DNA of 60,202 nt, the filler included, from Dehalococcoidia bacterium (lineage in GTDB: Bacteria > Chloroflexota > Dehalococcoidia > DSTF01 > RBG-16-68-14), in NCBI GenBank assembly GCA_040882355.1. It is 4 parts of 4 records of this genome, joined end to end, with 100 filler letters (N's around TTAATTAATTAA, not from the genome) between each part and the next. Parts side by side here need not be neighbours in the genome. Positions count along the whole stretch, not along the records: positions 16,744 to 32,879 come from JBBEBM010000058.1; 3 more parts are not named here. The stretch is one strand, 5' to 3'. The notes under the pieces are model-generated. The model searched no databases and was not told where the DNA came from. It worked only from the letters and a program-made list of their open reading frames with translations. Positions 16,644 through 46,670 of the stretch are shown in pieces. The position numbers were made by a program, and so were the translations under genes. Within the stretch, counting starts at the first letter, position 1, and every line of letters begins with the position of its first letter.

Positions 16644-16743
16644 NNNNNNNNNNNNNNNNNNNNNNNNNNNNNNNNNNNNNNNNNNNNTTAATTAATTAAN
16701 NNNNNNNNNNNNNNNNNNNNNNNNNNNNNNNNNNNNNNNNNNN
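16644..16743. other. Artificial contig linker
   Basis: N run containing TTAATTAATTAA (stops in all frames). Confidence 0.98.
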
Positions 16744-16863
16744 CGCGTCGCGCGCACCGCCGCTGCCCAGGGCGAGCGCCGCCGTGAGGCCGACGCCGGC
16801 CAGCGTGAGGACGATCAGCGCCCAAACGAGGAGTCGCCGTGGCAATACCGTGCTGCCGGGCAT
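16744..16863 (-). CDS. N-terminal fragment of a secreted/membrane protein
   Basis: AGGAGG RBS, MPGSTVLPRRLLVWALIVLTLAGVGLTAALALG... Confidence 0.6.
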
Positions 16864-16961
16864 GCTTCGCCTCCTGTAGGCGTAGCGGTGGGGCGGGGGC
16901 TGGGCTACAGGGCGCTCAGGGCCACCAGTCGCTCACGGTATAGGGCACCGGCGCGAGGATG

Positions 16962-17474
16962 TCAAGGGGTCGGCGTGCCTTGTGGCTCGGGAGTTGGAGT
17001 GCTAGTCGGTATCGCGACGGTGATGATGCGACCGATGTCGTTGTCCTCCTCCGCCGTCGTAAAGCAGTCGACCTCGTAACGGCCCGCCTGCTCCGGCGCC
17101 CTGAAGTCCTGTTTGAGGTCGCCCAAAAGAGGCTCCGACTCTCCAACGGGCCCCCCATTCTCGTTGACGTTGAGCGGCAGCTCGAAAATGCGGGCCACCA
17201 GCCGGTCGTCGCGCTTCCCTACGCCATCGCGGAGCAGGTCGCAGGCCACCGTCATCAGCACAGGGTATGGCTGCTGGTACTCCAACGTGAGCGAAAGGGT
17301 GCCGCTGGGCCTGAAGTCGCCTGTGATCGAGAGGCCCCTGAAGATCTCGCTCTCCTCGGACTCCGGCGAGAAGTCGACGCCGCAGCCTGCGGCGACCAGC
17401 ACGGTCGCGAGAAGGGCGCCCAGGAGGAGCGGCCGCCCAAAGCGATGTCGCGAGGGTGCTTGGGGTCGGGTCAT
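16962..17474 (-). CDS. Hypothetical lipoprotein
   Basis: Signal with lipobox AAGC; Pro/Thr tail. Confidence 0.7.
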   Translation of the reverse strand: MTRPQAPSRHRFGRPLLLGALLATVLVAAGCGVDFSPESEESEIFRGLSITGDFRPSGTLSLTLEYQQPYPVLMTVACDLLRDGVGKRDDRLVARIFELPLNVNENGGPVGESEPLLGDLKQDFRAPEQAGRYEVDCFTTAEEDNDIGRIITVAIPTSTPTPEPQGTPTP

Positions 17475-17611
17475 GAGCGACGTTTCAGCCTAGCCGAGGC
17501 CCGGCGCGTGAACAAGCCGACGCCTCCGCCGGCGCGAAGACGGCGGCAAGGTGCGCATGTGCGCCGTCGCTTGACGGCGGTTCAGGCTGGCCGTAGGCTC
17601 AGCTTAGTACC

Positions 17612-18121
17612 ATGCTCCGACGCGTCCTGCCTGTGTTCCTCCTTGCGCTCTCGGCTGCGGCCGCCGTCGGGTTGGCGGCGTGCGACAACGCTTCGTCGGA
17701 CGCGTCGCCGACGGTCGATGACGGCGGCACTACGGTGCGGGTCGGCGACGGGCTGGCAATCAGGGCGGAGCTGGCGCTGACGCCCGCGCAACGGACGTTA
17801 GGCCTGGGCCAGCGCGACTCGCTGGCCAGCGGCGCCGGCATGCTCTTCGTCTTTCAGGAGCCCGACGAGCACACGTTTTGCATGTGCGGCATGCGCTTCC
17901 CGCTCGATTTCGTCTGGATAGGGCCGGACATGCGGGTGGTGGACCTCTCACGCGACGTCCCGCCGCCGGACGAGGCGAACGGCGAGCCTGCGAGCTTTCG
18001 TCCGAGCGAGCCGGTGCTCTACGTGCTCGAGATCAACGCGGGCCTGGTGGACGGCGCCGGCGTGCAGGTGGGTGACGCGGTAACCTTCGAGCCGGAGGTA
18101 TCGCCGGGACAGGCGTCGTAG
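17612..18121 (+). CDS. DUF192 family lipoprotein
   Basis: LAAC lipobox; GMLFVF, MRFPLDFVWI, YVLEINAG. Confidence 0.88.
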   Translation: MLRRVLPVFLLALSAAAAVGLAACDNASSDASPTVDDGGTTVRVGDGLAIRAELALTPAQRTLGLGQRDSLASGAGMLFVFQEPDEHTFCMCGMRFPLDFVWIGPDMRVVDLSRDVPPPDEANGEPASFRPSEPVLYVLEINAGLVDGAGVQVGDAVTFEPEVSPGQAS

Positions 18122-18125
18122 CATA

Positions 18126-18917
18126 GTGAACATAACGAACGATCTCAGCCAGCGAGCGAAGCGCCTGCTCCGGTCCGCCGTTCCGTGGCTGCTCGTCGTC
18201 GCGCTCGCACTCTTCGCATCGTGCGGCGACGATGGCGGCGAGGCCGATGGCAGTGTCGCGCCAACCGCGTCGCCGGGTGGGCCGCCACTGGAGGGCAGTC
18301 TGTTCGCCAACGCGAGCTTCGAGGAGGGGGAGGCGCCCTGGGTCTCGCTGGAGTCGTGGGGCACGCAGTTCGCCGTCAGCGACGACGTCGCGCACTCAGG
18401 CGGGCATAGCGCGTTCCTCGAGCTGCGTAGCGAGGGCGCCGAAGACCAGCCGGCGCGCGTGTTCGGCGTCGTACAGGAAGTGACGCCCGACGAGTTTCCG
18501 GACGTGGTCTCCGGCTACTACTACGTCGACCGCTGGGAGCCGGGCACGCCGAAGCAGTACATGCAGTTCGTCGTGATCGTGTTCGGCGCCGACAACATTC
18601 CGGCGGAGGCGGCGCCGGCGACGAATCACCAGATCCGCTACATTCTGGCCGGCGTCGACTCGCCGCCGATCGCGATCACCAACGCTCGTTTCGTCATGGT
18701 CGGCACCGGCGCACCGAAGCAGGGCGAGTGGGTGCGCTTCGAGCGCAACATCCGAGAGGACTTCGAACAGCTCTGGGGCTCGGTGCCGGAGGGGCACGAC
18801 TTCATCCGCATCCTTTTCGAGGCGCGCTGGGACGAGCGCGCTCCGGACGCGCCGGCGTCCGCGGCGGACGTGTACTACGACGATCTGTACGCGGGGCCCG
18901 CGCCCGTGACGCCGTAG
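18126..18917 (+). CDS. Hypothetical lipoprotein with CBM/galactose-binding-like fold
   Basis: FASC lipobox; NASFEE...W, AHSG, YYDDL typical of CBM4/9-like domains. Confidence 0.7.
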   Translation: MNITNDLSQRAKRLLRSAVPWLLVVALALFASCGDDGGEADGSVAPTASPGGPPLEGSLFANASFEEGEAPWVSLESWGTQFAVSDDVAHSGGHSAFLELRSEGAEDQPARVFGVVQEVTPDEFPDVVSGYYYVDRWEPGTPKQYMQFVVIVFGADNIPAEAAPATNHQIRYILAGVDSPPIAITNARFVMVGTGAPKQGEWVRFERNIREDFEQLWGSVPEGHDFIRILFEARWDERAPDAPASAADVYYDDLYAGPAPVTP

Positions 18918-19065
18918 CCGAGCCCCTTCCAACAGGCTGAAGCCTGTCCCGCAGAAGGCAGAGGTCGACCGCCGGCTGGAGTCGGCGGCATGCAGGCGAG
19001 GCTTCCAGCCTCGCCTATGGTGAGTGCGGGGCGGAACGGCGAGAACCCGTCGCGCAGGCGAGGCG

Positions 19066-19581
19066 CTAGCCCGTGGCCCCGCCGGCGGGCGCTACGTCGA
19101 CCGGCACGGTCGCCTCGTCGGCCCCCGCGCTGGCTGTGAGCTGCCAGCTCCCGGCCTGCGGGAAGACGAGGTTGACGACGTAGTAGCTACCGGCGTCGTC
19201 CTCGCCGGTGGGAGTCGCGCGCCGGGCCTCGAATTCGACCGACGCGCCGCCTCGCTCCGCTCTCAGCGGAAGCGATTCCTGCTGATAGCCGTTCGTGACG
19301 CGGAGGACGAGCTTGTAGGACTGGTCCGTTTGCACCGACGCGAACTGGTCGCTCGTGCGCCAGAAGATGGGGTCTTCGCCCGTCTCGTACGGCAGGTCGA
19401 GCGAGTTGCCGGACGTCGGGTCTGTCTCGCTTGCCGTTGGCGAGACGATGGTGACGCTGACCGCTTCGGTCGGCGTCACCGCGGCCTCGCTGGCTGGCTC
19501 GTGATCGTCGCACGCGACGGCGACCGTGAGGGCGAGGAGCGTCGCGGCGAGCAGGAGAGCGGTCCGTATCTGCGATCTCAT
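19066..19581 (-). CDS. Hypothetical lipoprotein, Ig-like (YtkA/FixH-like) C-terminus
   Basis: AVAC lipobox; YVVNLVFPQAGSWQLTA; downstream of and co-directional with the mauF-like gene. Confidence 0.7.
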   Translation of the reverse strand: MRSQIRTALLLAATLLALTVAVACDDHEPASEAAVTPTEAVSVTIVSPTASETDPTSGNSLDLPYETGEDPIFWRTSDQFASVQTDQSYKLVLRVTNGYQQESLPLRAERGGASVEFEARRATPTGEDDAGSYYVVNLVFPQAGSWQLTASAGADEATVPVDVAPAGGATG

Positions 19582-19603
19582 CGTCTCAGTATAACGCCGG
19601 GTT

Positions 19604-20392
19604 TTACGAGAGGAGCGGAGCGACGAGGAGGTAGGCGGCGAACGCGCCGAGGGCGACTCCGGTCACCTGGTGGACGTGCGGCGCGAGTGCGATCAGCCGC
19701 TGGTTGAGGTCCGCGACGTCGCCGGGCTCTTTGCAGTTGGCGCTGCTGTAGATCGCGAAGGCGCGTGTTGCGCCGTAGACCAGGCCGGCGAGCGCTCCGT
19801 AGACGACGTTGCCGGAGACGAAGAGCCAGGCGAGCATGATCGGGAAGCTGGCGTAGGGCACCCTTGTGAAGACGCCGAAGCCGACGGTCCCGCCGAAGAT
19901 GACCGCGCTCCGATAAAACGTGCCGTGCACCCAGCTCGCGGGGACCTGCCAGTCGCGGCCGGGTACCGGCAGGCGCAGGAAGCCAAGCTCGTGGGCGGCG
20001 TAGACGAGCGAGACAGCGCCCAGCGCGATCGCGAGCGGTACCGTCGCGTCCGGCCAGAGGGCCTCGACGCCCCAGCCGGCTGTCGCGACGAGGACGCCGG
20101 TGGTCATGCCCGCCACCGTCATCGCGAGGGCGTAGACGGTTGCGCGCTGCAGCCAGCGCCGGTAGGTCTGAGTCCCTTCCACGAAGGGAGCGATCGTAAA
20201 GATCGCGTTGTGGCCTCAGGCGCTGCAGGTCTGGGCCAGGCCGACCAGCGCGGCAAGGGCGAGGCCGAGGCCGGCGGCGCCCGCCTCCCACGACAGTCCG
20301 GCTGTCGCGGCGGCGAGCGCCAGGCCCAGCGCCAGCCCGAGCGCGAGCAAGAGGGCGTGCCTGGCGTTGGTGAGCTGTTCCGCTCGGATCAT
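19604..20392 (-). CDS. MauF/CcdA-like polytopic membrane protein with in-frame TGA (probable selenocysteine at codon 59)
   Basis: ATG 20392 MIRAEQL...GLAQTCSA-TGA(20218-20216)-GHNAIFTIAP continues in frame into the 19604..20182 ORF; WQVPASW and GFGVFTRVP motifs. Confidence 0.72.
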
Positions 20393-20443
20393 AGTCTCAG
20401 TGTAGCCGTTCCGGCGAGGCCGTGGCCCCGCTGCTACGGCTCC

Positions 20444-20806
20444 TCAGCCCGGGCAGAACTGGGGGTTGTTGTGGTAGTCGCTGCCGCAGCCGCAGATGCC
20501 TTCCGGGCAGACGCAGTCGCAGCAGGTGACGGTGTCCGTCACCCAACAGCCGGAGGCGTAACCGACCCAGAACATGCAGGGCTTGGCGCAGACGCCGCCG
20601 GAGCTACAGCGTTCGCAGGCGCAGGGCAGGCTCGGGAAATCGCAGACGGTGGGAAAGCTGCCGGCGCTGGCCGGGCGCCCCTGCGTCGCCACGCCCGCCG
20701 CGGCGCCGAGGAGAGCGCCCATCGCCGTCTGCGCGCCGCGCCCGAATAGGCCGCGACGGGTCGTGTGGCGGGCGAGGCCTTCGCTAGCGCGTTGGAGCAG
20801 GCTCAC
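20444..20806 (-). CDS. Tat-exported Cys-rich peptide (MauA-like), paralog 3
   Basis: TRRGLFG twin-Arg; 14 Cys; SGCWV...TCCDC...DYHN. Confidence 0.85.
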   Translation of the reverse strand: MSLLQRASEGLARHTTRRGLFGRGAQTAMGALLGAAAGVATQGRPASAGSFPTVCDFPSLPCACERCSSGGVCAKPCMFWVGYASGCWVTDTVTCCDCVCPEGICGCGSDYHNNPQFCPG

Positions 20807-20830
20807 GGGCGAACACTGATTGCTCGCGCC

Positions 20831-21220
20831 CTACGGGCAGAACAGGGGGTTGTTGTGGTAGTCGCCTCCACAGCCGCACCAGCCGTCCCCCGCGACCGCG
20901 GGACAGACGCAGTCGCAGCAGGTGACGAGAGCATTCAGGTCTGTGTTGAACACGACCCAGCAACCGGAGGCATAGTACTCGGTCAAGATCATGCATGGCT
21001 TCGCGCAGACGCCGCCCGAGCTGCAGTTGTTGCAGGGGCAGGGCGGACCGGGGAACTGGCAGAACGTGGTGAGTCCGGCGCTCGCCGGGTTCGTTTGGGC
21101 CAGGGAGCCTGCCGCGGCGCCGAGCAGCGCGCCGGTGGCCACCGTTACGCCCCGCCCGAACAGCCCCCGACGGCTGGTCCTGCGGGCGAGTCCCTCACTG
21201 ACGCGGCGCAGAACCTCCAT
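20831..21220 (-). CDS. Tat-exported Cys-rich peptide (MauA-like), paralog 2
   Basis: SRRGLFG; same 14-Cys pattern. Confidence 0.87.
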   Translation of the reverse strand: MEVLRRVSEGLARRTSRRGLFGRGVTVATGALLGAAAGSLAQTNPASAGLTTFCQFPGPPCPCNNCSSGGVCAKPCMILTEYYASGCWVVFNTDLNALVTCCDCVCPAVAGDGWCGCGGDYHNNPLFCP

Positions 21221-21223
21221 CGA

Positions 21224-21604
21224 TTACGGCTTGATGCAGTTGTGCGGGTCGTTGTGGTAATCGGTGCCGCAACCGCAGATGTCGTAGCCACCAAAGCCGT
21301 TGCAGTCGCAGTCGCAGCAGGTGACATTTCCTACGACCCAACAGCCCGAGGCGTAGTAGACCGTCATGATGATGCACGGCTTCTTGCAAACGCCGTTGTT
21401 GCAGCCGTCGCAGTGGCAGCCGGGGCCGGGAAAGGAGCAGACTGTGTTGTAGATATGCCTCGCTCCCACGCGGTCCGCCTGGGTTACCGCGCCGGCCGCG
21501 GCGCCGATCAGGGCGCCAGTCGCGACCTCCGCGCCCCGGCCGAAGAAGCCGCGGCGGCTGGTCTTGCGGGCGAGTCCCTCACTGACGCGTTGTAGTAGGT
21601 CCAT
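21224..21604 (-). CDS. Tat-exported Cys-rich peptide (MauA-like), paralog 1
   Basis: AGGAGG RBS; SRRGFFG; same 14-Cys pattern. Confidence 0.87.
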   Translation of the reverse strand: MDLLQRVSEGLARKTSRRGFFGRGAEVATGALIGAAAGAVTQADRVGARHIYNTVCSFPGPGCHCDGCNNGVCKKPCIIMTVYYASGCWVVGNVTCCDCDCNGFGGYDICGCGTDYHNDPHNCIKP

Positions 21605-21622
21605 GGTGCGCCTCCTCGTCTC

Positions 21623-22243
21623 CTAATGGCCTTCGGTTGCTACGGGCTCCCCGCCTCCGGCGGGCAGGCGGCGCGCCTTCGCGCCGTTCGTGTGATCGCC
21701 GAGCTTCGCTGCACTAAGCAGCATATCGAGATGCTGGCGGTTGTTCGCGAGGCCCTTGGCCTGGACCACGCCCTCAGCGTCGAGCATGTGGGCGAAGGGC
21801 GTGACCCGTACCTTGAACTGGTCGGGTAGCGACTCGTCCGGGTGGACGGCGACGGTGACTTCTACGGCGTTCTCCTCGGCGAAGCGCTGCGTGAGCTCGA
21901 GCTCGCCGCGGCTCAGGAAGAGCACCCGCAGGTCGCCGGCGTACTCCTGGGCGAAGGCGTTCAGGTCCGGGATGAGCGCCTTGCACGGCGCGCACGAGGG
22001 CGAGCCGAAGACCAGGAGCAGCGGCAGCCCGCGGAAGTCCGCGAGCGAGAGTCCGCGACCGTCGAGCGCCTGGACGGCGAACTCAGGGGCGGCCGTGCCC
22101 GGCGCGAGGCCGTCGCGCGCAACGCCCTGCGCGGTACCCAGGTACATCATGCCGAGCTGACGCAGCAGCAAGAAGACGACTGCGCCCTGGAGGAAGACGA
22201 TCCCCCACAGGACGATGTAGCTGATCAGCCATGGACCGCTCAT
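21623..22243 (-). CDS. mauD: MauD-like membrane-anchored thioredoxin
   Basis: N-terminal TM + LLRQLG, GLAPGTAAP, CAPC, TPFA, KGLANNRQHL. Confidence 0.85.
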   Translation of the reverse strand: MSGPWLISYIVLWGIVFLQGAVVFLLLRQLGMMYLGTAQGVARDGLAPGTAAPEFAVQALDGRGLSLADFRGLPLLLVFGSPSCAPCKALIPDLNAFAQEYAGDLRVLFLSRGELELTQRFAEENAVEVTVAVHPDESLPDQFKVRVTPFAHMLDAEGVVQAKGLANNRQHLDMLLSAAKLGDHTNGAKARRLPAGGGEPVATEGH

Positions 22244-22920
22244 GCCGTGCGCTCCATCTCGATCGTCGTCTCGTCGATGTGGGCGGTCGGGCGGTGCCCG
22301 TTGCTGCTGTGGTTGTGGCCGGTGACCTGCGTGCGCTGCGTTTGCGAGAAGATCGCGCGGAAGGCCGCGGCCTCCGGCAGCAGGATCAGCGCGTCGAAGA
22401 CGACGCCGGCGATCAGCACGACGGGGATGACTTCGCTGACCGGCGGCAGGTCGGCGCTGGAGCCAAAGAGCGCGTACTCGAGCGAGCCGAAGCGGCTGGC
22501 GCCCAGCGCGACGACGAGCGCCATGCTGGCGAAGATCAGCGATCGCAGGAGCGCCGTCGCGCCGATCGGGTCGGCCTGCACCGCGCCGAAGCAGTGGCAG
22601 TCGAGCTCGCGGCCGCGCTGAAGGTTGACGCCAATGGCGAAGGTGAAGCTGAGGAAGAGCGGCACGGCGATGCCGGCGGCGACGCCTGTGCCGAACCCGA
22701 CGAGCAACAGCACGCCGAGTGCGGTCTCGATCCAGGGCACGGCGGCCGCGAAGGGCCGGGCGAGCGTCGCGGGCAAGACCTCGTACTCGGCGACGGCCTG
22801 GCGGAAGCTCGCTCGATCGACGAGCTTCGATACGCCGGCAAGGAGCAAGACGCCCCCCAGCACCAGCCGCAAGAAGAGCTGGATGTGGGGCTGCGACAGC
22901 GCTTCGATCGGGTACGACAT
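22240..22920 (-). CDS. mauE: MauE/DoxX family redox-associated membrane protein
   Basis: LRLVLGGVLLLAGVSKL, VPWIE, RGRELDCHCFG; start MSYPIE at 22920. Confidence 0.87.
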   Translation of the reverse strand: MSYPIEALSQPHIQLFLRLVLGGVLLLAGVSKLVDRASFRQAVAEYEVLPATLARPFAAAVPWIETALGVLLLVGFGTGVAAGIAVPLFLSFTFAIGVNLQRGRELDCHCFGAVQADPIGATALLRSLIFASMALVVALGASRFGSLEYALFGSSADLPPVSEVIPVVLIAGVVFDALILLPEAAAFRAIFSQTQRTQVTGHNHSSNGHRPTAHIDETTIEMERTA

Positions 22921-22943
22921 GATCCCTCCGCCCGCCTCGACGC

Positions 22944-23855
22944 CTACGCGCTCGCCGACCGGTAGCCGGTCAGGTGGCTCCCGCTTCCGGCGACCTGCAG
23001 CAGGTAGAAGCGACCGTCCTCCTCGCCGAGGGGAAGGTAGCCGGCGGCGCTGAGCTGCAGGAGCGGTAGGGCGGGGTTGGCGCCATCGAGCATGTCGGAC
23101 CAGACGGCCCGCTGCGCCGCGCCGATGACGATCTGGTTGTAGCGCACCGTCGCCGTGCGGGCGAAGGAGCGGTCGGCGGCGCGGGTGAGCGAGAGCGTGG
23201 GGCTCAGGCGCCGCGACAGGTCTTCGGTCGGGTCGAGCAGCGTGCCGGACAGGATCGAGAGCGAGGCCCACATCGGCTCGGCGCGGTCGGCGGCCAGCGC
23301 CAGGCGGTCGCCGGTCTCGCGGTCGAGCATGAGGTTGAGCATCGCGTGGGAGCCGGCGCCGTTCAGCTTGGAGGGCGTGAGCACCTCGGTGCGCAGGCCG
23401 GTGTCCGGTCGCTTCGTCAGGTCGTAGTGCTGCTTGAGCAGCCCTTCAGGGTCGAACTGGAAGCGTGGGAAGCGCCAGGCCGTGTTGTTGGAGTAGAGCA
23501 GGACCTGGGCGAGCTGGTCGCCCCCGGGGTAGTCGCGGAAGAAGAACTCCGCGCCCGCTTCCTGCACGGCCAGCGGCCGGCTGCGGATGGCGGCGGCGGC
23601 CGGCGCCCAGCAGCAGACCTCGCTCAGCTCGTGCGCGAGCCCGCTATCGCCCGCCCAACGGGCGGCATCGACGGCGCGCGTGCGCAGGCTATCGATGCTG
23701 TACGGGCCTTCGGCCGGCCCGCCTCCCGCCTGGCCACCCGCGAGCGAGCCCGCAGAAGAGGCGGCGAAGCTGCGGAGCGGTGCCATGCGGGTCAGCCCCA
23801 GGCCGACCATAGCTGCTCCCAGTGTCGTCAGGAATCCGCGTCGTGTACAGGACAT
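22944..23855 (-). CDS. Tat-signal hypothetical protein, first gene of mau-like operon
   Basis: TRRGFLTTLGAA twin-Arg signal; GGAGG RBS; no recognisable family. Confidence 0.75.
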   Translation of the reverse strand: MSCTRRGFLTTLGAAMVGLGLTRMAPLRSFAASSAGSLAGGQAGGGPAEGPYSIDSLRTRAVDAARWAGDSGLAHELSEVCCWAPAAAAIRSRPLAVQEAGAEFFFRDYPGGDQLAQVLLYSNNTAWRFPRFQFDPEGLLKQHYDLTKRPDTGLRTEVLTPSKLNGAGSHAMLNLMLDRETGDRLALAADRAEPMWASLSILSGTLLDPTEDLSRRLSPTLSLTRAADRSFARTATVRYNQIVIGAAQRAVWSDMLDGANPALPLLQLSAAGYLPLGEEDGRFYLLQVAGSGSHLTGYRSASA

Positions 23856-24159
23856 GACCTAACCTCCCGCCCCCGGCTTTCGCCGGGTACGCTCCCCTAC
23901 GCTCGTGTCGGTTGCGTCTATTCTACCACCTCTGTCAAGAGAACGACATAACCGGTCTGGATGTAACCCAGGCATGGCACCCGAGCATTCGCGGCCCCTT
24001 GCCCAAGGCAGCACCCTCTTTACCGATCATCGACCCAGGATGGCTGAGAACGAACCCCGGGCGATTCGCCCCTCGCTGACGGCAAGTTCGAGGTGCTGAT
24101 TCCGGCAGATCGCTGGTTCCGAAGGGCAGCGACGCCGGCGACGCTGGTATACTGCGGTC

Positions 24160-24423
24160 GTGACCTCTGTGAATGGACCGGCGTTGGCCATCGAGAACGA
24201 GGCGCTCGTGCTCGACCTGGTCGAGTGGATCGCCGAGAGGCCGCGGACCTACGCCGACACGATAGACGCCTGGCGGACATCGTGCCCCCGTCTGTCGATC
24301 TGGGAGGACACGCTCGACCATGGGTTCGTGGCATGCGAGCATCGCGGCGGCTCCGACGTGATCGTCAATGTGACACCTGCCGGGCTAGCGCTTCTCAAAC
24401 GCAGCGGGCGAGGAGACTCGTAG
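24160..24423 (+). CDS. Small conserved hypothetical protein (wHTH-like)
   Basis: LDLVEWI...AWRTSCPRLSIWED...VTPAG; start uncertain. Confidence 0.65.
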   Translation: MTSVNGPALAIENEALVLDLVEWIAERPRTYADTIDAWRTSCPRLSIWEDTLDHGFVACEHRGGSDVIVNVTPAGLALLKRSGRGDS

Positions 24424-24493
24424 GGCCGGAGGCGGACTGCGTTCGCAACGGCTGGCGGGACTGATCGAGAAATCGGGTAGAATCGTATCTCGT

Positions 24494-24568
24494 GGGCCCG
24501 TAGCTCAATGGCAGAGCAGCGGACTTTTAATCCGACGGTTGAGGGTTCGAGCCCCTCCGGGCCCCCCA
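24494..24568 (+). tRNA. tRNA-Lys(UUU)
   Basis: GGGCCCG acceptor, D-arm GCTC/GAGC, loop CTTTTAA, GTTCGA T-loop, encoded CCA. Confidence 0.95.
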
Positions 24569-24571
24569 AGG

Positions 24572-25561
24572 TCAGTCAGTACCCACGAGCTCCGCGTCCG
24601 GCGGGTCGGGTACCAGGGACTCCGCGAAGCGATCGTCGCCGGTGACGTGCACCTTCAGGAACACGGTCCCGTAGCGATTGATCAGCTCGTGCCCGCGAGC
24701 CTCGGGCAGCGCGTCCGTGCAGCCGAGGCAGTGGTCGATGAACGAGAGGTGGTGGCCCTCCGGCAGCAGCACGTAGTGGGTGATCGTCGCGACGGCTAGC
24801 GCGTCGTACAGGTTGTCGACCTCGTCCTTCGGCACGATCTCGTCCTTGCTACCGGCGATGACCATCACCGGCGCTCGGACGTCTGCCGCCACTGGGATCA
24901 GCGACTCCGGGAGGCCGGGCGCCAGCGACACCGCGGCGTCGAACTGCCCGTCTGGCGCGACAGACACGGCCGTCCAGCCGCCGAACGAGTGGCCGGCGAT
25001 GGCGGTGCGCTCCGGGTCGACGAGAGGGCCGAGGGGCTCGGTCCCGTCATCGTGCAGCGTCACCATCTCGTCGAGAATGAACGCGACATCGCCCGGCCGC
25101 TCCTGCGCGGACGCGGCGATGTTCTGCGCGTCGCACAGCACACAATCGTCTGTGGTGTTACCGGGATGCGGCGGCGACGCGACGACGAAGCCCCAGGAGG
25201 CAAGGTGCCCCGTGAAGAAGCTCTGGTTCTCCAGCATGCCACCGCTGCCGTGCGAGAAGATCACCAGCGGGAACGGCCCGTCGTCGGTCGCAGGCGCCTC
25301 GTCGGTGACGGCGCCGGCTGCGCCCTCCGCCGGATACCAGATCCAGGTCTCCATCGCGCGCGGGGTGGCGTCGGCGGTGGACGGCCGCGTGGAAGTCATC
25401 TTCGTCACGCCGACGGCGTACGGCCCGGTCCCGCCGGGATCGCCGAAAAAATCGCTCTCGCCGTCGCCCGAACCGCCGCCCAAGTCGCACGCGGCGTTCA
25501 AGAGACAGGCGATTGCGAGGAACGGCACCGCGACGATGGCAAGGGGGAGGCGTCCGATCAC
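24572..25561 (-). CDS. Alpha/beta hydrolase lipoprotein (dienelactone hydrolase/PAF-AH-like)
   Basis: FSHGSGG, GHSFGG nucleophile, D and H of triad; NAAC lipobox; probable GTG start. Confidence 0.85.
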   Translation of the reverse strand: MIGRLPLAIVAVPFLAIACLLNAACDLGGGSGDGESDFFGDPGGTGPYAVGVTKMTSTRPSTADATPRAMETWIWYPAEGAAGAVTDEAPATDDGPFPLVIFSHGSGGMLENQSFFTGHLASWGFVVASPPHPGNTTDDCVLCDAQNIAASAQERPGDVAFILDEMVTLHDDGTEPLGPLVDPERTAIAGHSFGGWTAVSVAPDGQFDAAVSLAPGLPESLIPVAADVRAPVMVIAGSKDEIVPKDEVDNLYDALAVATITHYVLLPEGHHLSFIDHCLGCTDALPEARGHELINRYGTVFLKVHVTGDDRFAESLVPDPPDAELVGTD

Positions 25562-25581
25562 GTTCCTAACCCCAATCCGGC

Positions 25582-26490
25582 TTACGCCCTCTCGATGTAG
25601 CCGAGCTCGATGATCCCGTAGCCGACGCGATCGCCAGAGCGGTAGCGGGCGAAGCCGTCCTTGCACCACGTCTGGCCGAACCGCGTCGGCGCGATCGCGA
25701 GTACCTCTTCGCCGATGATGTGGTGCTCCCGCTGCCGCTCGTCGACCAGGTGCAGCTCGACGCCGGTCTGGCGGGTGCCGCCGTCCGTCGCCCGCACGTC
25801 CATGCGCACCTCTGCCAGGTCCATCACCTCGTGCCCGTCCCAGAGGCCGCCGATGAAGATCTTCGTCTCGCCGAGCGTGACGCGCACCGCGTTGAACCAG
25901 AAGTCCCTGCCGAACTCTCCGCTCAGATAGTCCCAGCGCGGCAGGCGCGACCAGTCTCGCTCGTCGCCCCAGGTGTGGTCGCGGTGGCCGAAGCAGTCAA
26001 GCGGGTACGTCGCGCCGCCGAGCGTCATCGTGCCCGTCACCACGCCCGCGTGCTCGATGTGACCTGCGGGTCGGAGCGCTTCCGCTTCCGGCTGCGGCGC
26101 ATGGTTCGGATAGAGGTAGGTGGGACTCATGCCCTGCCAGGTCACGTCCATCTTGTGGGCACCGTGCGCGTAGCGCAGCCGGAAGCCCGCGAGCGGCTCC
26201 TCCCAGACGATCTCCATCGCGCCGAGCGCGAGGCGCCGGTCTTCCATCGGCGGAAGCGGCGCGTGCTGGTCGATCAGGCTGTGGACGATCTCGCCCTGGC
26301 GCACGAGATGCAAGTAGATGTTCGCGTGGTCGCTGTTCGGATAGTTCCCGATCCTCACCGTCACCCCGATCTCGACCTGGGGGTCGTAGAAGGCGAACCA
26401 GAAGCTCTCGTTCCAGAGCGGCCGCCTGTCGGAGCCGGGTAGGTGCCGGCGGTCGTCTTCGATCGTGGCCATGTGCACGGCGCTCGCCAT
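25582..26490 (-). CDS. Hypothetical beta-barrel (tocopherol cyclase/lipocalin-like) protein
   Basis: WNESFWF, GHIEHAG, GHRDHTWG motifs; operon with APH and SDR genes. Confidence 0.7.
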   Translation of the reverse strand: MASAVHMATIEDDRRHLPGSDRRPLWNESFWFAFYDPQVEIGVTVRIGNYPNSDHANIYLHLVRQGEIVHSLIDQHAPLPPMEDRRLALGAMEIVWEEPLAGFRLRYAHGAHKMDVTWQGMSPTYLYPNHAPQPEAEALRPAGHIEHAGVVTGTMTLGGATYPLDCFGHRDHTWGDERDWSRLPRWDYLSGEFGRDFWFNAVRVTLGETKIFIGGLWDGHEVMDLAEVRMDVRATDGGTRQTGVELHLVDERQREHHIIGEEVLAIAPTRFGQTWCKDGFARYRSGDRVGYGIIELGYIERA

Positions 26491-26502
26491 CGATCCCTCC
26501 TC

Positions 26503-27576
26503 TCAGCTTGCCTGGAACGGGATGTCGAGCAACGCGGCCAGCCGTCGCGTGATCGGGCTGTCCAGTCCGTTGCCCGGCGATTGCGCGGGCGCGCTCAAGC
26601 GTCGCAACTGACGGTAGAGGCTGACCATGATCACGCCGAACCGCAAGCCCGCCATCACCTCGTGGTAGAAGAGGTGCTCCGTCTTGCGGGCGGTAAGCTC
26701 CTCGTAGCGGCACACGGTTTCGTTTCGATCGGGGAGCCCTGGCAGGCGAGCGACGCCGTGGCCCTCGCTGTGGTGCCAGTCGAGGAAGAGCCACCACGCC
26801 AGGTCGGCCTCCGGGTCGCCAAGGAACGCCATCTCCCAGTCGAGCGCGCCGGCGACGTCGTTGTCGCGGAAGATGATGTTGGGCAGGCGCGCATCGCCCC
26901 AGCAGAGGGCGACGCGCGCTGGCGTGAAGCGATGCTCTCGAAGCCAGCGCAGGGCGGCGTCGAGGACCGGCTCGGGCTCGTCTTGCTGCGCCCAGCGCAG
27001 GAAGCTCTCGTAGTAGTCGATCTGCCGATCCAGCGGGTCGGTCCCGGCGCCCGGTACGCGGAGGAAGGACAGGCCCAGCGCCTGCCAGTCGACGGAGTGG
27101 ATGCGCGCAAGCGTCTCGACGCCGCGCCACCACATCTCCTCGCGCGCATCGGGCGTGGCGTCGGCCAGGACGCCCGTCGTGTGGTAGAAGGGGACATCGG
27201 GTGGCACCTCGCCTTCGATACGGTCCATCACGTAGAACGCTCTGCCGACCACGCCTTGGTCCTCTTCGAGCCAGCGCACCGTGGGGACGGCGATGCCTGT
27301 GTCGATCAGACATCGCATCACGCGGACTTGCCTGGCGAGGTCGTACTCGGGGAAGACGCGCACGTCGCGCGGCTCCAGCCGGAACACCAGGCGCTCCGCG
27401 CGCTCCTCGCCGCGCTCCCGCCACGCGAGGTCGGCGAGCAACGTCTCGTTCGAGAAGCCGGCGCCCGGCTTGGTCAGCGACGACAGGCGAACGTCATCGG
27501 CGTCCGGCAGCTTGCCCACGAGCCACTCGGACAGGCTCGCGCGGATCGTCTCCATGTCGCGTTGCTGGGCAACCAC
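26503..27576 (-). CDS. Phosphotransferase (APH/ACAD10-like) family protein
   Basis: GFSNET, WGDARLPNI, LDWEM, GDPEADLAW. Confidence 0.9.
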   Translation of the reverse strand: MVAQQRDMETIRASLSEWLVGKLPDADDVRLSSLTKPGAGFSNETLLADLAWRERGEERAERLVFRLEPRDVRVFPEYDLARQVRVMRCLIDTGIAVPTVRWLEEDQGVVGRAFYVMDRIEGEVPPDVPFYHTTGVLADATPDAREEMWWRGVETLARIHSVDWQALGLSFLRVPGAGTDPLDRQIDYYESFLRWAQQDEPEPVLDAALRWLREHRFTPARVALCWGDARLPNIIFRDNDVAGALDWEMAFLGDPEADLAWWLFLDWHHSEGHGVARLPGLPDRNETVCRYEELTARKTEHLFYHEVMAGLRFGVIMVSLYRQLRRLSAPAQSPGNGLDSPITRRLAALLDIPFQAS

Positions 27577-27583
27577 GTCCCGC

Positions 27584-28492
27584 CTACTGGAACCCCATAA
27601 CGAAGCCGTCCTTGATCGGCTCGCGCTGTTCGAAGAACGGCCCCATCGCCTCCACGAGCCCATCTACGGTCCACGCACCCTCGGCGTCGAAGCTCTGCGC
27701 GACGGTTGGGCCGGCGAGCACGGACGCGCGGTTGCCGTAGATGATGAACACCTGGCCGGAGACTCGCTCCGCCGCCCGCGACGCGAGGAAGCCGACCAGC
27801 GGCGCGACGTTCTCAGGCGCGAACGCGTCGAAGCCCTCCTCCGGCTTATTGAACATGCCGCCGCCGATGGCCTCGGTCATGCGGGTGCGCGCTCGCGGGC
27901 AGATCGCGTTGGCGGTGACGCCGTAACGCTGGCAGGCCTGCGCCGTCGCCATCGTCAGCGCAGCGATGCCGGCCTTCGCCGCCGCGTAGTTCGGCTGGCC
28001 CGCCGAGCCGAGCAGGAACGCCTCGGACGCCGTGTTCACGATCCGGCCGTAGACCGGCCCGTTCTGCTCCTTGGCGCGGTCTCGCCAGTAGGCGGTCGCC
28101 CAGCGCGTGGTGCAGAAGTGGCCCTTCAGGTGCACGCGAATGACGCCGTCCCACTCCTCCTCCGACATCGTGAAGACCATCCGGTCGCGCAGGAAGCCGG
28201 CGTTGTTGACGAGGATGTGGAGGTCGCCGAAGGTGTCCAGGGCGGTGTTGATCAGCTTCTCGGAGTCGTCCCAGTTGGCAACGTCGCCGTAGTGAGCGAT
28301 CGCCTCGCCTCCGGCGCCGGCGATCTCGTCGACGACCTGCTGGGCCGGGCTCTCGCTGCTTCCCGAGCCGTCCGCCTCGACTCCCAGGTCGTTCACCACG
28401 ACCCGGGCGCCCAGCTTGGCGAGCTGCAACGCCTCCACCCGGCCGAGCCCTCGGCCAGCTCCCGTGACGATCGCGACCTTCCCCTCTAGCAT
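27584..28492 (-). CDS. SDR family oxidoreductase (3-oxoacyl/hydroxyacyl-CoA type)
   Basis: TGAGRGLG, NNAG, YAAAK. Confidence 0.93.
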   Translation of the reverse strand: MLEGKVAIVTGAGRGLGRVEALQLAKLGARVVVNDLGVEADGSGSSESPAQQVVDEIAGAGGEAIAHYGDVANWDDSEKLINTALDTFGDLHILVNNAGFLRDRMVFTMSEEEWDGVIRVHLKGHFCTTRWATAYWRDRAKEQNGPVYGRIVNTASEAFLLGSAGQPNYAAAKAGIAALTMATAQACQRYGVTANAICPRARTRMTEAIGGGMFNKPEEGFDAFAPENVAPLVGFLASRAAERVSGQVFIIYGNRASVLAGPTVAQSFDAEGAWTVDGLVEAMGPFFEQREPIKDGFVMGFQ

Positions 28493-28551
28493 GCGGCGTC
28501 TCCTCCTCTTACGCGCTCAACTCGCGGGCTGAGCGCCAGAATCGCGTCCCG

Positions 28552-28580
28552 TTGACTTCGCAAGTAGGCAAGCGTACCAT
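28552..28580 (+). promoter_or_regulatory. Sigma70-type promoter of P450 operon
   Basis: TTGACT-N17-TACCAT. Confidence 0.55.
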
Positions 28581-28650
28581 GATACCCGCCGCCAATTCGC
28601 GATGTCGAGAGCGCGAAACGCGGCGCAAGCCGGAAGCGAGGGATGGATAG

Positions 28651-29913
28651 TTGAAGCTGGAAGAGATAAACCTGCTCGACCTGGACCGCTTCGTCGAGGG
28701 CGTCCCCTTCGAGGAGTTCGCGCTGCTCCGGGCCGAAGCGCCGGTCTACCTGCATCCCGAGCCCGACGGCGGGCCGGGGTTTTGGGTGATCACCACGTAC
28801 CACGACATCGTCACCGTCTCGCAGGACTGGGCGACGTACTCGTCCGCGCAGGGCGTCGTCGGCCTCTCGCGCGCCGAGCGCCAGTACGGCGGCGACGACG
28901 CCGACCCCGAAGCGGGCGGGCCTGCCGCAGAGGGCGCCCAGCTCATGATGCTCAACATGGACCCACCGAAGCACACGAAGCTGCGAAAGCTCGTCAACAC
29001 CGGCTTCACGATGGCCCGCATCAACAGGCTCGAGGAGGCGGTGCGCAAGGTGACGACGGAGATCCTCGACAGGGTCGCGGACCGCGGCGAGTGCGACTTC
29101 GTCACCACCATCGCCGCCGAGCTGCCGCTGCAGGTGATCGCCGAGCTGATGGGCATCCCGCAGGAGGACCGGCACAAGGTCTTCGACTGGAGCAACCGGA
29201 TGATCGGCAGCGCCGACGAGGAGTTCCACTCGGCCGGCGGCGGCCCGCTCCAGGCGAGCATGGAGATGTTCGCCTACGCGGAGGAGCTCGCCACGAAGCG
29301 CCGCACAGAACCGCGAGACGATCTGATCAGCGTGCTCCTGGGCGCCGAGGTCGACGGCGAGCAGCTCACGCCGCTGGAGATCGACGTCTTCTTCCTCCTC
29401 CTCGCCGTCGCCGGCAATGAGACGACGCGCAACTTGATCGCCGGCGGGATGATCGCGCTGTTCGAAAGCCCCGATCAGTGGCAGCGCCTCCTCGATGACC
29501 CGTCGCTCTGCACCAGCGCCGTCGAGGAGATGCTGCGCTGGGTGACGCCGGTAATGTACTTTCGCCGCACCTCGACGCATGACATGGAGGTGCAGGGCCA
29601 GCAGATCAAGGAGGGCGACAAGGTGTCGCTCTGGTATATCTCCGGCAACCGCGACGAAGAAGTCTTCCCACACGCCGATCAGTTCGACGTCGGCCGCAGC
29701 CCGAACATGCACATCGCGTTCGGCGGCGGCGGGCCGCACAACTGCCTGGGCCTCAATCTCGCGCGTCTCGAGATCAAGGTGATGTTCGAGGAGCTGCTCC
29801 GCCGCATGCCGGACCTGGAGCAGACCGGACCGGCCGCCCGCCTCCGCTCCAACTTCATCAACGGCGTCAAGCACCTGCCGGTGAAGTTCACGCCCGCCAG
29901 GGTGCCCGCGTAA
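28651..29913 (+). CDS. Cytochrome P450 (CYP125/124-like)
   Basis: AGNETT, EMLR, FGGGGPHNCLG heme motif. Confidence 0.95.
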   Translation: MKLEEINLLDLDRFVEGVPFEEFALLRAEAPVYLHPEPDGGPGFWVITTYHDIVTVSQDWATYSSAQGVVGLSRAERQYGGDDADPEAGGPAAEGAQLMMLNMDPPKHTKLRKLVNTGFTMARINRLEEAVRKVTTEILDRVADRGECDFVTTIAAELPLQVIAELMGIPQEDRHKVFDWSNRMIGSADEEFHSAGGGPLQASMEMFAYAEELATKRRTEPRDDLISVLLGAEVDGEQLTPLEIDVFFLLLAVAGNETTRNLIAGGMIALFESPDQWQRLLDDPSLCTSAVEEMLRWVTPVMYFRRTSTHDMEVQGQQIKEGDKVSLWYISGNRDEEVFPHADQFDVGRSPNMHIAFGGGGPHNCLGLNLARLEIKVMFEELLRRMPDLEQTGPAARLRSNFINGVKHLPVKFTPARVPA

Positions 29914-29921
29914 CGGCGCGA

Positions 29922-30236
29922 ATGTCGGACTTCGTGAAGGTCGCTGACCTGGCGGAGGTGCCGTCCGGCGAGATGGTGCTCGTCGACCTCAACGGCGAGG
30001 AAGTCGCGCTCGCGAACGTCGACGGCGCGATCTACGCCGTGAGCGACACCTGCACGCACATGGCAGGCCGTCTCTCCCAGGGCATGCTCGAAGGCGCGAT
30101 CGCGACCTGCCCGCTCCACTCGGGCCAGTTCGACGTCCGCACCGGCGAAGTCGTGAGCGAGCCGCCCGACGAGCCGCTTCGCACCTATCGGGTCGTAGTC
30201 AACGACGCCGGCGAGATCCTCGTCGCAGTTGACTAG
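29922..30236 (+). CDS. Rieske-type [2Fe-2S] ferredoxin
   Basis: CTH...CPLH ligands. Confidence 0.93.
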   Translation: MSDFVKVADLAEVPSGEMVLVDLNGEEVALANVDGAIYAVSDTCTHMAGRLSQGMLEGAIATCPLHSGQFDVRTGEVVSEPPDEPLRTYRVVVNDAGEILVAVD

Positions 30237-30238
30237 CG

Positions 30239-31396
30239 ATGGACTACGGCTGGGCGCAGGAGTACGTCGACTTCAGAGAAAAGGTGCGCGCCCTCGTCGA
30301 CGAGCACGACTCGCCGGAGATCCACCTCGAGTACTCGCAAGAGGACCGGCGCGGCCCGCGCACGGCGGCCTTTCGCAAGGCGCTCGACGGGCGCGGCTGG
30401 CTCCGCATGTGCTGGCCCGTGGAGTACGGCGGCGAAGGCAAGTCGCCGTGGTACCAGTTCATTCTCATCGAGGAGTTGGAGTACCGCGCCATGCCGTACG
30501 GCCTGCTCAGCGTCACGTCGGTAGCGCCCGCAATCATGGCCTACGGCAGCGACGAGCAGAAGAAGCGGTACATGCCCGGCATCTGGGACGGCTCGGTCAG
30601 CTTCGCCATCGGTTACACGGAGCCCGAAGCCGGCACCGACCTCGCGTCGCTGCAGACGCGCGCCGTCCGCGACGGCGACGACTGGGTGATCAACGGCCAG
30701 AAGATCTTCACATCAGGGGCGCATTCGGCGACGCACGTCTGGCTCGCGGCGCGCACCGATTCCGACGCGCCCAAGCATCGCGGCATCTCGATGTTCATCG
30801 TGCCGATCGACGCGCCCGGCGTCACGATCACGCCGATGTACACGATGTCCGGCCTGCGCACGAACCAGACGTTCTACGACGACGTGCGCGTCTCCAGCGA
30901 CGCCCTCGTCGGCGAGGAGAACCGCGGCTGGTACATCGTCGCGCATGCGCTCAACCACGAGCGCGTTGGCCTCGCGCCGACGGGCGGCCTCGGCCGCAGC
31001 TTCGATGCGCTGGTGCAGTACCTGCGCGAACGACGCCCCGAGGCGCTCGAGGACCCGCAGGTGAGAATGCGACTCGCCGAGATGCGGATGGAGGTCCACG
31101 TCCAGCGCGCCCTGGCAACGACGAACGGTTCGATCATCGCGAACGGCGGCACGCCGACGATGGAGGCTTCGATGGCGAAGGTCTGGAGCAGCGAGCTGCG
31201 CCACCGACTGCACAGCCTCGCCATGGACCTGCTCGGCCGCTACGGCGGGTTGACGCGCGAGTCCGGCGATCTTGCGCCCGCGAACGGCCGGCTGGAGATG
31301 ATTTATCGCACGTCGCCCATCCTACGCTTCGGCGGCGGCACGAACGAGATCCAGCGCTCGATCATCGCGCAGCGCGGCCTCGGCCTGCCGCGATGA
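30239..31396 (+). CDS. Acyl-CoA dehydrogenase (catalytic subunit of heteromeric pair)
   Basis: GYTEPEAGTDLASL, NGQKIFTS, LNHER, GGGTNEIQR. Confidence 0.93.
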   Translation: MDYGWAQEYVDFREKVRALVDEHDSPEIHLEYSQEDRRGPRTAAFRKALDGRGWLRMCWPVEYGGEGKSPWYQFILIEELEYRAMPYGLLSVTSVAPAIMAYGSDEQKKRYMPGIWDGSVSFAIGYTEPEAGTDLASLQTRAVRDGDDWVINGQKIFTSGAHSATHVWLAARTDSDAPKHRGISMFIVPIDAPGVTITPMYTMSGLRTNQTFYDDVRVSSDALVGEENRGWYIVAHALNHERVGLAPTGGLGRSFDALVQYLRERRPEALEDPQVRMRLAEMRMEVHVQRALATTNGSIIANGGTPTMEASMAKVWSSELRHRLHSLAMDLLGRYGGLTRESGDLAPANGRLEMIYRTSPILRFGGGTNEIQRSIIAQRGLGLPR

Positions 31397-31406
31397 GCCG
31401 CTAACG

Positions 31407-32513: not shown

Positions 32514-32592
32514 AACGTCACCCGCCGAACGAAAGACATCGCGAGAGGCCGGCGCGCCCGACGAATCTCGTGACCTAGCGACGCCACCGGCG

Positions 32593-32879
32593 CTATGGCT
32601 CTGCCAGCTTCCCGTTGCGCGGCGGTTGGTCCGGGTGCGGCATGGCACAGGTCGAACCGTGGCGGCCGTAGACGAACTGCACATCCTTGATGTCGATGTC
32701 GCCGTCACTGTTGATCTGACCGGACGGCTCCAGGTCGAAGCGGTCGTTGTAGAGGAGCGCGCCGAGCTTGGTGCCCCAGCGGAAGGCGAGCAGTTGCTCG
32801 TCGCGCACGTCCACGGCGCAGTCACCGTTCACGTCGCCTTCCAGCCAGCGGATCGTCAGCTCGCTGTCGTCGCAGCCGA
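32593..32879 (-). CDS. C-terminal fragment of surface protein with dockerin/EF-hand-like (flexitail-like) tail
   Basis: DVNGDCAVDVRD...SDGDIDIKDVQFVYGRHGSTC. Confidence 0.65.
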
Positions 32880-32979
32880 NNNNNNNNNNNNNNNNNNNNN
32901 NNNNNNNNNNNNNNNNNNNNNNNTTAATTAATTAANNNNNNNNNNNNNNNNNNNNNNNNNNNNNNNNNNNNNNNNNNNN
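32880..32979. other. Artificial contig linker
   Basis: N run with TTAATTAATTAA. Confidence 0.98.
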
Positions 32980-46570: not shown

Positions 46571-46670
46571 NNNNNNNNNNNNNNNNNNNNNNNNNNNNNN
46601 NNNNNNNNNNNNNNTTAATTAATTAANNNNNNNNNNNNNNNNNNNNNNNNNNNNNNNNNNNNNNNNNNNN
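46571..46670. other. Artificial contig linker
   Basis: N run with TTAATTAATTAA. Confidence 0.98.

Follow-up and report, generated by a model that had tools for sequence, protein, structure and literature searches.

A probable selenocysteine-containing branch of the CcdA/DsbD superfamily in Chloroflexota

The stretch of DNA under study, hereafter the window, comprises 60,202 nucleotides from the genome of a Dehalococcoidia bacterium of the phylum Chloroflexota (assembly GCA_040882355.1), in four pieces with N runs around TTAATTAATTAA linkers between them (positions 16644–16743, 32880–32979 and 46571–46670). On the minus strand of its 16,136-base piece at 16744–32879 (JBBEBM010000058.1), a complete gene of 262 codons plus TAA (19604–20392; 789 bases) encodes a predicted CcdA/DsbD-superfamily membrane protein of seven helices and contains an in-frame TGA at codon 59 (20216–20218). 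This TGA is very probably a selenocysteine (Sec) codon, and the gene most probably represents a new Sec-containing branch of the superfamily. The explanation that we consider likely as a whole is that of a single gene, whose UGA would be read as Sec with the help of downstream RNA and whose product would be a CcdA-like carrier encoded within an operon of cysteine (Cys)-rich and MauD-like proteins. A first-pass annotation of the window had already proposed a Sec-containing MauF-like transmembrane electron carrier at this place, a reading that is now supported by the occurrence of TGA or Cys in one column of the homologs, by the Sec machinery of the genome and by hhalign comparisons.

The frame opens at ATG 20392 and reads ...GLAQT-C-S-A-TGA-G-H-N-A-I-F-T-I-A-P-F-V-E-G..., in which V is GTG 20182, before ending at the TAA of 19606–19604. 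Two open reading frames (ORFs) lie in this same frame, separated by 11 codons: a hydrophobic one of 58 aa (20216–20392) and one of 192 aa (19604–20182). The N-terminal 58 codons (20219–20392), which are dropped by gene callers, encode an additional transmembrane (TM) helix together with the initial half of the active-site helix. Reading through the TGA yields a product of 262 aa in which the putative Sec, U59, stands in the motif C56-S-A-U59-G. The continuous frame from ATG 20392 through the TGA into the ORF called at 20182, as claimed in the first-pass annotation, is confirmed by ORF listing and translation. Contigs of four public runs from one study, one run possibly being that of the source sample, cover the TGA site without any listed difference; the other codon that the first-pass annotation had envisaged as a refutation appears in none of these contigs. 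None of the 19 public runs found was an RNA run.

The conservation of the TGA was followed in a clade set made of the window, a locus from a Dehalococcoidia metagenome-assembled genome (MAG; L025, 68% identical) and 26 metagenome loci fetched as DNA, four of which begin downstream of the TGA site and were excluded, leaving 22 metagenome loci and a total of 24. The TGA is present in all 24 loci, within C-S-[AT]-TGA-[GA]-[YH]-N and with a conserved N-terminal part ahead of it. The coding sequence is under comparable constraint on both sides, with a pairwise ratio of nonsynonymous to synonymous substitution rates (dN/dS) of 0.21 for codons −34 to −4 before the TGA, and of 0.23 and 0.29 for two downstream stretches. 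Since the TGA and its upstream frame are kept in 24/24 loci and the codons of the downstream hairpins described below are frozen at synonymous sites, the in-frame TGA is a confirmed observation that goes beyond chance. Searches of whole genomes (401 of the class and 401 of the phylum) added more distant TGA forms, namely 14 loci in 14 published Chloroflexota genomes, reading S-P-U-G, T-A-U-G or A-P-U-I; an unpublished genome (G604; locus L066, T-V-U-G) was used for no claim and is counted in the tally of 30/401 genomes of the phylum.

Protein databases hold the family almost exclusively in shortened form. A word-indexed search of 5.8 billion proteins returned 152 relatives, the best 120 of which are all 161–198 aa long, with a query coverage that never exceeds 76%; none of these 120 close homologs reaches the N-terminus, which indicates that public gene calls start after the TGA. 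HMMER, run exhaustively against 1.84 billion representatives (clusters at 50% identity), found 708 proteins at E <= 0.001, and 150 listed representatives were re-aligned. Among these, 127 start 0–16 residues past the U column (in 95 cases at a Met located four residues past it), 19 are later fragments and two are 58-aa pieces whose last residue immediately precedes the TGA. The remaining two, P0122 (W-T-P-C-G; 56% identical) and P0186 (W-S-S-C-G), are full-length and have Cys in the U column. A clade of Cys forms (L029–L037) reads L-P-C-G at the same place, and in the 28-row alignment A4, where P0122, P0186, L029 and L030 contribute Cys, just four columns are invariant, the U/C column among them. 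Both Cys and TGA, the two states that the first-pass annotation had sought at codon 59 in homologs, are therefore present. A RefSeq entry of 204 aa is likewise truncated, a homolog in Candidatus Amarolinea aalborgensis is also on record in truncated form, and S-P-U-G forms occur in several complete Chloroflexota genomes. By these comparisons the predicted family occurs widely in Chloroflexota, and all public annotations found for it are truncated. Distant members (P0127–P0270) share a conserved Met four codons past the UGA (U-G-x-x-M), a ready false start for gene callers. One match in a 'Proteobacteria' MAG (L026) was rejected as a chance match, being actually a histidine-kinase gene.

Taken at face value, the split form of all public gene calls found would suit an ordinary stop codon, with a 58-aa membrane peptide followed by a 172–192-aa protein that starts at GTG 20182 or later, and the conserved Met of the distant homologs offers a possible start for such a protein. 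We regard this explanation as highly improbable. The stop is invariably TGA in the clade, never TAA or TAG, and occupies one fixed column, and no other part of the gene is as conserved as the 11 codons that lead from it to GTG 20182. The annotated start itself is GTT or GTC, hence a non-start, in 6/24 loci, and no ribosome-binding motif was found ahead of it in the window. Moreover, the Cys-containing homologs are single full-length proteins, and a CcdA fold deprived of the N-terminal part would lose its active-site helix.

A Sec codon finds its counterpart in the structured RNA that follows the UGA. Hairpin 1, GCGAUC-UUUAC-GAUCGC (20206–20190, minus strand; +10 to +26), begins at the tenth base past the UGA and had been described by the first-pass annotation, correctly in sequence, position and lack of a loop G. 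Hairpin 2, CCCUUC-GUG-GAAGGG (20188–20174, minus strand; +28 to +42), had been overlooked. The consensus of the bacterial Sec insertion sequence (SECIS), as used in the bSECISearch criteria, has a G or GU in the apical loop at the right distance from the UGA. Hairpin 2 may be a better candidate for this apical loop than hairpin 1, because its loop begins with GU 33 bases past the UGA and comes nearer to the consensus. The RNAalifold consensus further contains a possible lower stem on the minus strand, CAGCG.C (20225–20219) paired with G.CGCUG (20160–20154), that would enclose the UGA and both hairpins (20154–20225); codons −3 to −1 are nearly invariant at synonymous sites, and the stem is kept as tentative because it shows no covariation.

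The two hairpins are marked by a near absence of synonymous change. With stems defined by base-pairing in the single window sequence and not by conservation, synonymous entropy averages 0.04 bits over the 12 stem codons and is exactly zero in ten of them, against 1.13 bits for the 99 other conserved degenerate codons, of which three are at zero (Mann-Whitney p = 3e-8). The five loop or linker codons that pass the same conservation filter average 1.06 bits. All stem codons of hairpin 1 are free of synonymous variation, and its loop codon varies. In hairpin 2, codons CCC, TTC and GGG are invariant in 24/24 loci and GAA in the 22/24 that have Glu (two have Gln, CAA), and the loop codon is GTG, GTT or GTC. 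The synonymous rate (dS) of codons +1 to +15 is 0.35, compared with 0.90–1.02 elsewhere. The proposal of a hairpin at the place of a SECIS is thus strengthened by the frozen stem codons, but the hairpin that it singled out may not be the better candidate of the two.

In distant Sec forms, both places are occupied by hairpins of different sequence, with other stems at that of hairpin 1 in L067, L070, L075 and L081 and, at that of hairpin 2, other stems with a GGUC loop in L070 and L073. The sequences are CACAGC/GCUGUG in L067, CAUGGU/ACCAUG followed by CUUCUC-GGUC-GAGAAG in L070, and ACGCGGC/GCCGUGU together with AUCCUC/GAGGAU in L075. A hairpin UUUCCUC-GGUC-GAGGGAA is found in L073, and the loops of distant members read GGUC, CGUGA or CGGGC. 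Hairpin 2 of L069 is CCUCU/AGAGG, with two compensated pairs. Searched with a covariance model of the clade, L069 (35 bits, E = 1e-7) and L065 (E = 0.005) yield the site, and 0/13 loci of the Cys form give a match.

The machinery for Sec insertion is encoded in this genome (3.33 Mb, 94% complete). A tRNA-Sec scores 79.5 bits (cut-off 47) and is called likewise by ARAGORN, as tRNA-SeC(tca), and selA (570 bits), selB (322 bits) and selD (373 bits) all exceed their curated cut-offs, so that the selA, selB, selC and selD genes which the first-pass annotation had proposed to look for are accounted for. A third way to read the locus would be that UGA is translated as Trp, Cys or Gly, through near-cognate decoding or a reassigned code. 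Nothing specific speaks for it except that read-through alone would likewise keep the frame, and we hold it to be extremely improbable. It is opposed by the presence of selA in this genome and in all 14 other carrier genomes, by the homologs, which show Cys and not Trp in the column, and by the conserved structured RNA directly past the codon. Furthermore, TGA is a normal stop here: among 20 candidate frames with in-frame TGA that were examined in this genome (see below), six have separate Pfam domains before and after the TGA.

Several results weigh against the assignment of Sec. Hairpin 1 has a loop, UUUAC, without a G. The clade covariance model recovers 3/14 distant Sec loci, the third (L076) only at E = 0.25, and misses the other 11. 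The covariation term of RNAalifold is close to zero, because the stems are invariant within the clade; the 98-nt fold has a z-score of −1.96, and whole-segment folding energies fail to separate Sec from Cys forms. The co-occurrence of selA with the gene is uninformative, because selA lies above its cut-off in 308/401 sampled Chloroflexota genomes (a tally that includes the five unpublished genomes G604, G435, G531, G556 and G643) and the Sec trait is therefore very common in the phylum. The predicted Sec insertion at U59 is nevertheless very probable on comparative grounds.

A comparison of the hairpins with those of other selenoprotein genes of the same genome, as suggested in the first-pass annotation, found no second such gene to compare. 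The FdhA model TIGR01553 has no match in this 94% complete genome, and its selD is free of in-frame stops. Two screens based on GC content at third codon positions were dropped, since they missed the gene in hand. A codon-usage screen recovered it (scores 0.49 and 0.59) among 73 candidates, 20 of which were picked by eye as lacking an obvious start just past the TGA; a Pfam domain spans the TGA in none of these 20. This screen is crude and is blind to a Sec within 10 codons of the start or 15 codons of the end of a gene, so it is not a census, and the claim is limited to no second selenoprotein gene having been found. Three open frames, L113 (G000:C54:45049-45360) and two in G000:C22 near 20280 and 23966, have P-Q-[SL]-I-T-P-x-G-[YN]-TGA-P-[FS] in common; given their low coding scores, they probably represent a repeated motif read in antisense rather than selenoprotein genes.

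The relationship of the protein to the CcdA/DsbD superfamily emerges from its relatives and from profiles. P0186 passes Pfam DsbD_2 with 34.4 bits (cut-off 24.9), members of A4 match DsbD_TM (5/28) and DsbD_2 (3/28) at E <= 0.01, and NCBIfam DsbD is matched by 3/28. Aligned by hhalign with five canonical CcdA genes of the same phylum, A4 gives a probability of 97.7% and E = 2.2e-12 over 202 columns, and U59 falls on the Cys of the S-P-C motif in TM1 of canonical CcdA. The S-P-C-G type of motif that the first-pass annotation had named for this position finds its match here, canonical CcdA of the phylum reading SPC and distant Sec forms S-P-U-G. A confident AlphaFold2 (AF2) model (mean predicted local distance difference test score, pLDDT, 89; predicted TM-score, pTM, 0.86) consists of seven helices and is interrupted at residue 57, which lies between C56 and U59. 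These alignments make the protein a divergent CcdA/DsbD-superfamily member, with the predicted Sec at the first active-site position and the partner Cys relocated. The first-pass annotation had called it 'MauF-like'; the membership that the profiles indicate is in the CcdA/DsbD superfamily.

This assignment has to be set beside results that count against it or leave it undecided. The window protein itself falls below all Pfam and NCBIfam thresholds, with no DsbD match at E <= 0.1. Foldseek gives its best probability to CcdA (5VKV), at only 0.57, with TM-scores of 0.32–0.36 and E = 0.32, and the top rows of VIA-align are NqrE and Rnf subunits (Z 5.4–6.5); a profile search of PDB sequences with the selenoprotein returned nothing at E <= 10. 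The second CcdA Cys, in W-T-P-C of TM4, faces F-T-R-V-P-Y in the window clade and is absent there, and several distant members are without an obvious partner Cys. The TM4 Cys is kept in L028, L067 and the L029–L037 clade. A canonical relay of two Cys is consequently impossible for the family as a whole. In the window clade the TM4 Cys is gone and a new one has appeared at C56, in a C56-x-x-U59 motif that is invariant in 24/24 loci, so that a selenenylsulfide inside a single helix is the probable redox couple.

For the same reasons a role for a single selenol stays a real alternative to the redox couple. Sec would then be real, and the protein would be a membrane chaperone or transporter that, for example, hands a thiophilic metal such as copper, or else sulfur or selenium, to the Cys-rich proteins encoded beside it. 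The loss of the TM4 Cys in the window clade and the want of a conserved partner Cys in several S-P-U-G members would fit such a role, as would the single Cys of the P0122 motif and the RR signal, of the twin-arginine translocation (TAT) type, borne by the Cys-rich proteins. RR/TAT signals typically mark proteins that leave the cytoplasm with a cofactor bound. The MauE-like protein of the operon moreover matches HvfX, a family of maturation of copper-binding ribosomally synthesized and post-translationally modified peptides (RiPPs), at a weak E = 0.0025, and among the membrane selenoproteins in Table 1 of a recent review are a mercuric transport protein and a transporter for Cu/Zn efflux (PMC13188914). 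On balance we find this alternative unlikely, since every detectable relationship is to the DsbD/CcdA redox carriers, C56-x-x-U59 is a classic redox motif, a CxxC thioredoxin-fold partner gene is always close by, and the Cys-rich proteins match no metal-binding family.

The genes around the Sec-containing carrier candidate form an operon on the minus strand, in the order 303-aa RR protein, MauE-like protein, MauD-like thioredoxin, Cys-rich RR proteins, selenoprotein gene and lipoprotein. All related loci of sufficient length share this arrangement, and the Cys-rich gene is present in them in one to five copies. At its head, the 303-aa RR-signal protein (22944–23855) matches no Pfam or NCBIfam family and is 65–68% identical to proteins at the same position in L025, L052 and L061. 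It is followed by a MauE/DoxX-family membrane protein (22240–22920; PF07291, E = 8e-29, 101 bits) with a likely start at ATG 22920, and by a membrane-anchored thioredoxin-fold protein with a C-A-P-C motif, MauD/TlpA/ResA-like (21623–22243; AhpC-TSA, E = 1e-13; Redoxin), which matches TIGR02661 MauD at E = 2e-21 with 76 bits, below the cut-off of 188.6 bits.

Directly upstream of the selenoprotein gene lie three tandem Cys-rich proteins of 120, 129 and 126 aa (20444–21604, minus strand), each with an RR signal and about 16 Cys. A Cys-rich gene, at 26–33% identity, also precedes the distant selenoprotein genes L070, L073, L075 and L076, and L070 carries a thioredoxin gene as well. The tandem arrays of the window and of L041, L044, L045 and L046 share the invariant elements C..C...C, GCW, CCDC.C, CGCG and DYHN. 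An affinity of these proteins to MauA was considered and rejected: a profile of 24 sequences matched no PDB chain (a chance hit to legumain had E = 0.44) and no Pfam family. In an AF2 model residues 51–120 have a pLDDT of 79–94 (about 90 in the Cys-rich domain), and Foldseek found no match (best E 4.2). With a domain modelled confidently and lacking a match in Pfam, PDB or fold searches, the Cys-rich proteins constitute an unclassified protein family.

Directly downstream, a predicted lipoprotein of 171 aa (19066–19581, minus strand) has the lipobox-like sequence LTVAVAC, and it is found in 23/27 related loci searched (L025 and the 26 metagenome loci); in the exceptions (L042, L049, L060 and L061) the DNA ends at or just past the selenoprotein gene, or ten queries gave no match. 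ATG 20392 of the selenoprotein gene is preceded by TACACTGAGACT, and ATG 19581 of the lipoprotein gene by the near-identical TATACTGAGACG. These 12-mers (20393–20404 and 19582–19593, minus strand) have the form TA[CT]ACTGAGAC[TG] and are missing ahead of the other genes of the operon; the shared element may be a translation-initiation or processing signal common to both ATGs.

From this arrangement, a mechanism can be proposed for the Sec-containing carrier. UGA at codon 59 of the 20392–19604 frame would be read as Sec, aided by the structured RNA just downstream, placing Sec at the position of the first active-site Cys of CcdA, half-way along a kinked TM helix, where C56 and U59 would form a selenenylsulfide within the helix. 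The carrier would pass cytoplasmic reducing equivalents through the membrane to the MauD-like thioredoxin, its putative redox partner according to the gene neighbourhood, and this thioredoxin would keep or re-shuffle the Cys of the exported Cys-rich proteins, in the way that CcdA serves ResA/CcmG. Service to the Cys-rich proteins would be the most likely job of the carrier, as the conserved gene order suggests. A more ambitious proposal, possible in our view and rather doubtful when all its parts are taken jointly, is that MauE-like, MauD-like and Sec CcdA-like proteins constitute an undescribed selenium-dependent pathway of the Chloroflexota envelope that matures a new class of TAT proteins with about 16 Cys; that the mechanism is new for the superfamily, with one selenol or a one-helix CxxU selenenylsulfide and not a Cys pair on two symmetry-related helices; and that, in genomes without a Sec formate dehydrogenase, of which this is one, the carrier is perhaps what maintains selection on the entire Sec machinery.

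If true, these proposals would add a large family, of 708 clusters at 50% identity, to the prokaryotic selenoproteome, and it would include the first stand-alone membrane carrier of the CcdA type with Sec buried in a TM helix. Cys and Sec forms side by side, with and without a second Cys, would offer a natural experiment on the replacement of Cys by Sec, and a function would be linked to three unannotated families, namely the Cys-rich TAT proteins, the 303-aa TAT protein and the lipoprotein. In practice, a rule for gene callers (a TGA in S-P-U-G or C-x-x-U-G, then two hairpins) could recover the family. Table 1 of the May 2026 review lists 119 prokaryotic selenoprotein families, among which there is no stand-alone CcdA-like one (PMC13188914), and the notion of an undescribed selenoprotein family, already put forward in the first-pass annotation, agrees with that table and with the empty Pfam and NCBIfam scans of the window protein. 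Literature on selenoproteins or Sec together with CcdA, DsbD, MauE, TsoB or cytochrome c biogenesis in Chloroflexi gave no description of such a family, most subscription journals lying outside the coverage, and a passage of one paper on MauF, MauE and MauD has nothing on the MauF fold.

Among known selenoproteins, several membrane proteins of the same table have Sec within or next to a TM segment, as would the window protein: the mercuric transport protein (C/SxxU), the SO_0444 Cu/Zn efflux transporter (UxC) and YeeE/YedE (GUxSG) (PMC13188914). The MerT-like family shares with it a motif of the CxxU type, whereas Pfam and NCBIfam scans gave no sequence relationship to any of them. The sole entry of the table with a DsbD-like part is TsoB, a rhodanese/DsbD fusion with UxxxxU (PMC13188914). 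Apart from the DsbD-like part, the likeness is limited to two of the 28 A4 members that weakly touch the TsoB model (NF045694, E = 0.008). The window protein does not match that model at E <= 0.1 and has no rhodanese domain, and its family has a single Sec in CxxU/SPU, not two in UxxxxU, and stands in another operon.

The mau cluster (MauE, MauD, MauF and MauA) resembles the window operon in its overall composition, with a MauE family member, a MauD-like thioredoxin and small Cys-rich RR-signal proteins that adjoin a polytopic membrane protein. MauA, the small subunit in the mau system, is TAT-exported and disulfide-rich. In contrast, the Cys-rich proteins of the window do not match the MauA family or any solved fold, the MauD match is below the equivalog cut-off, and no large dehydrogenase subunit is seen at the window locus.

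The closest counterpart is the TM domain of CcdA/DsbD (PF02683 DsbD_TM, PF13386 DsbD_2 and 5VKV), with which the window protein shares six core helices, the profile match described above and a redox residue midway along a kinked TM helix. The likeness extends to the neighbouring gene, which encodes a membrane-anchored CxxC thioredoxin, just as ResA and CcmG are the thioredoxins that CcdA serves. The window protein differs from CcdA by a predicted Sec in place of Cys, an extra N-terminal helix and Pfam scores below threshold; in its clade the Cys of TM4 is replaced by one at −3 from Sec, in CxxU; and its neighbours are Cys-rich TAT proteins and MauE, where those of CcdA are cytochrome c maturation genes.

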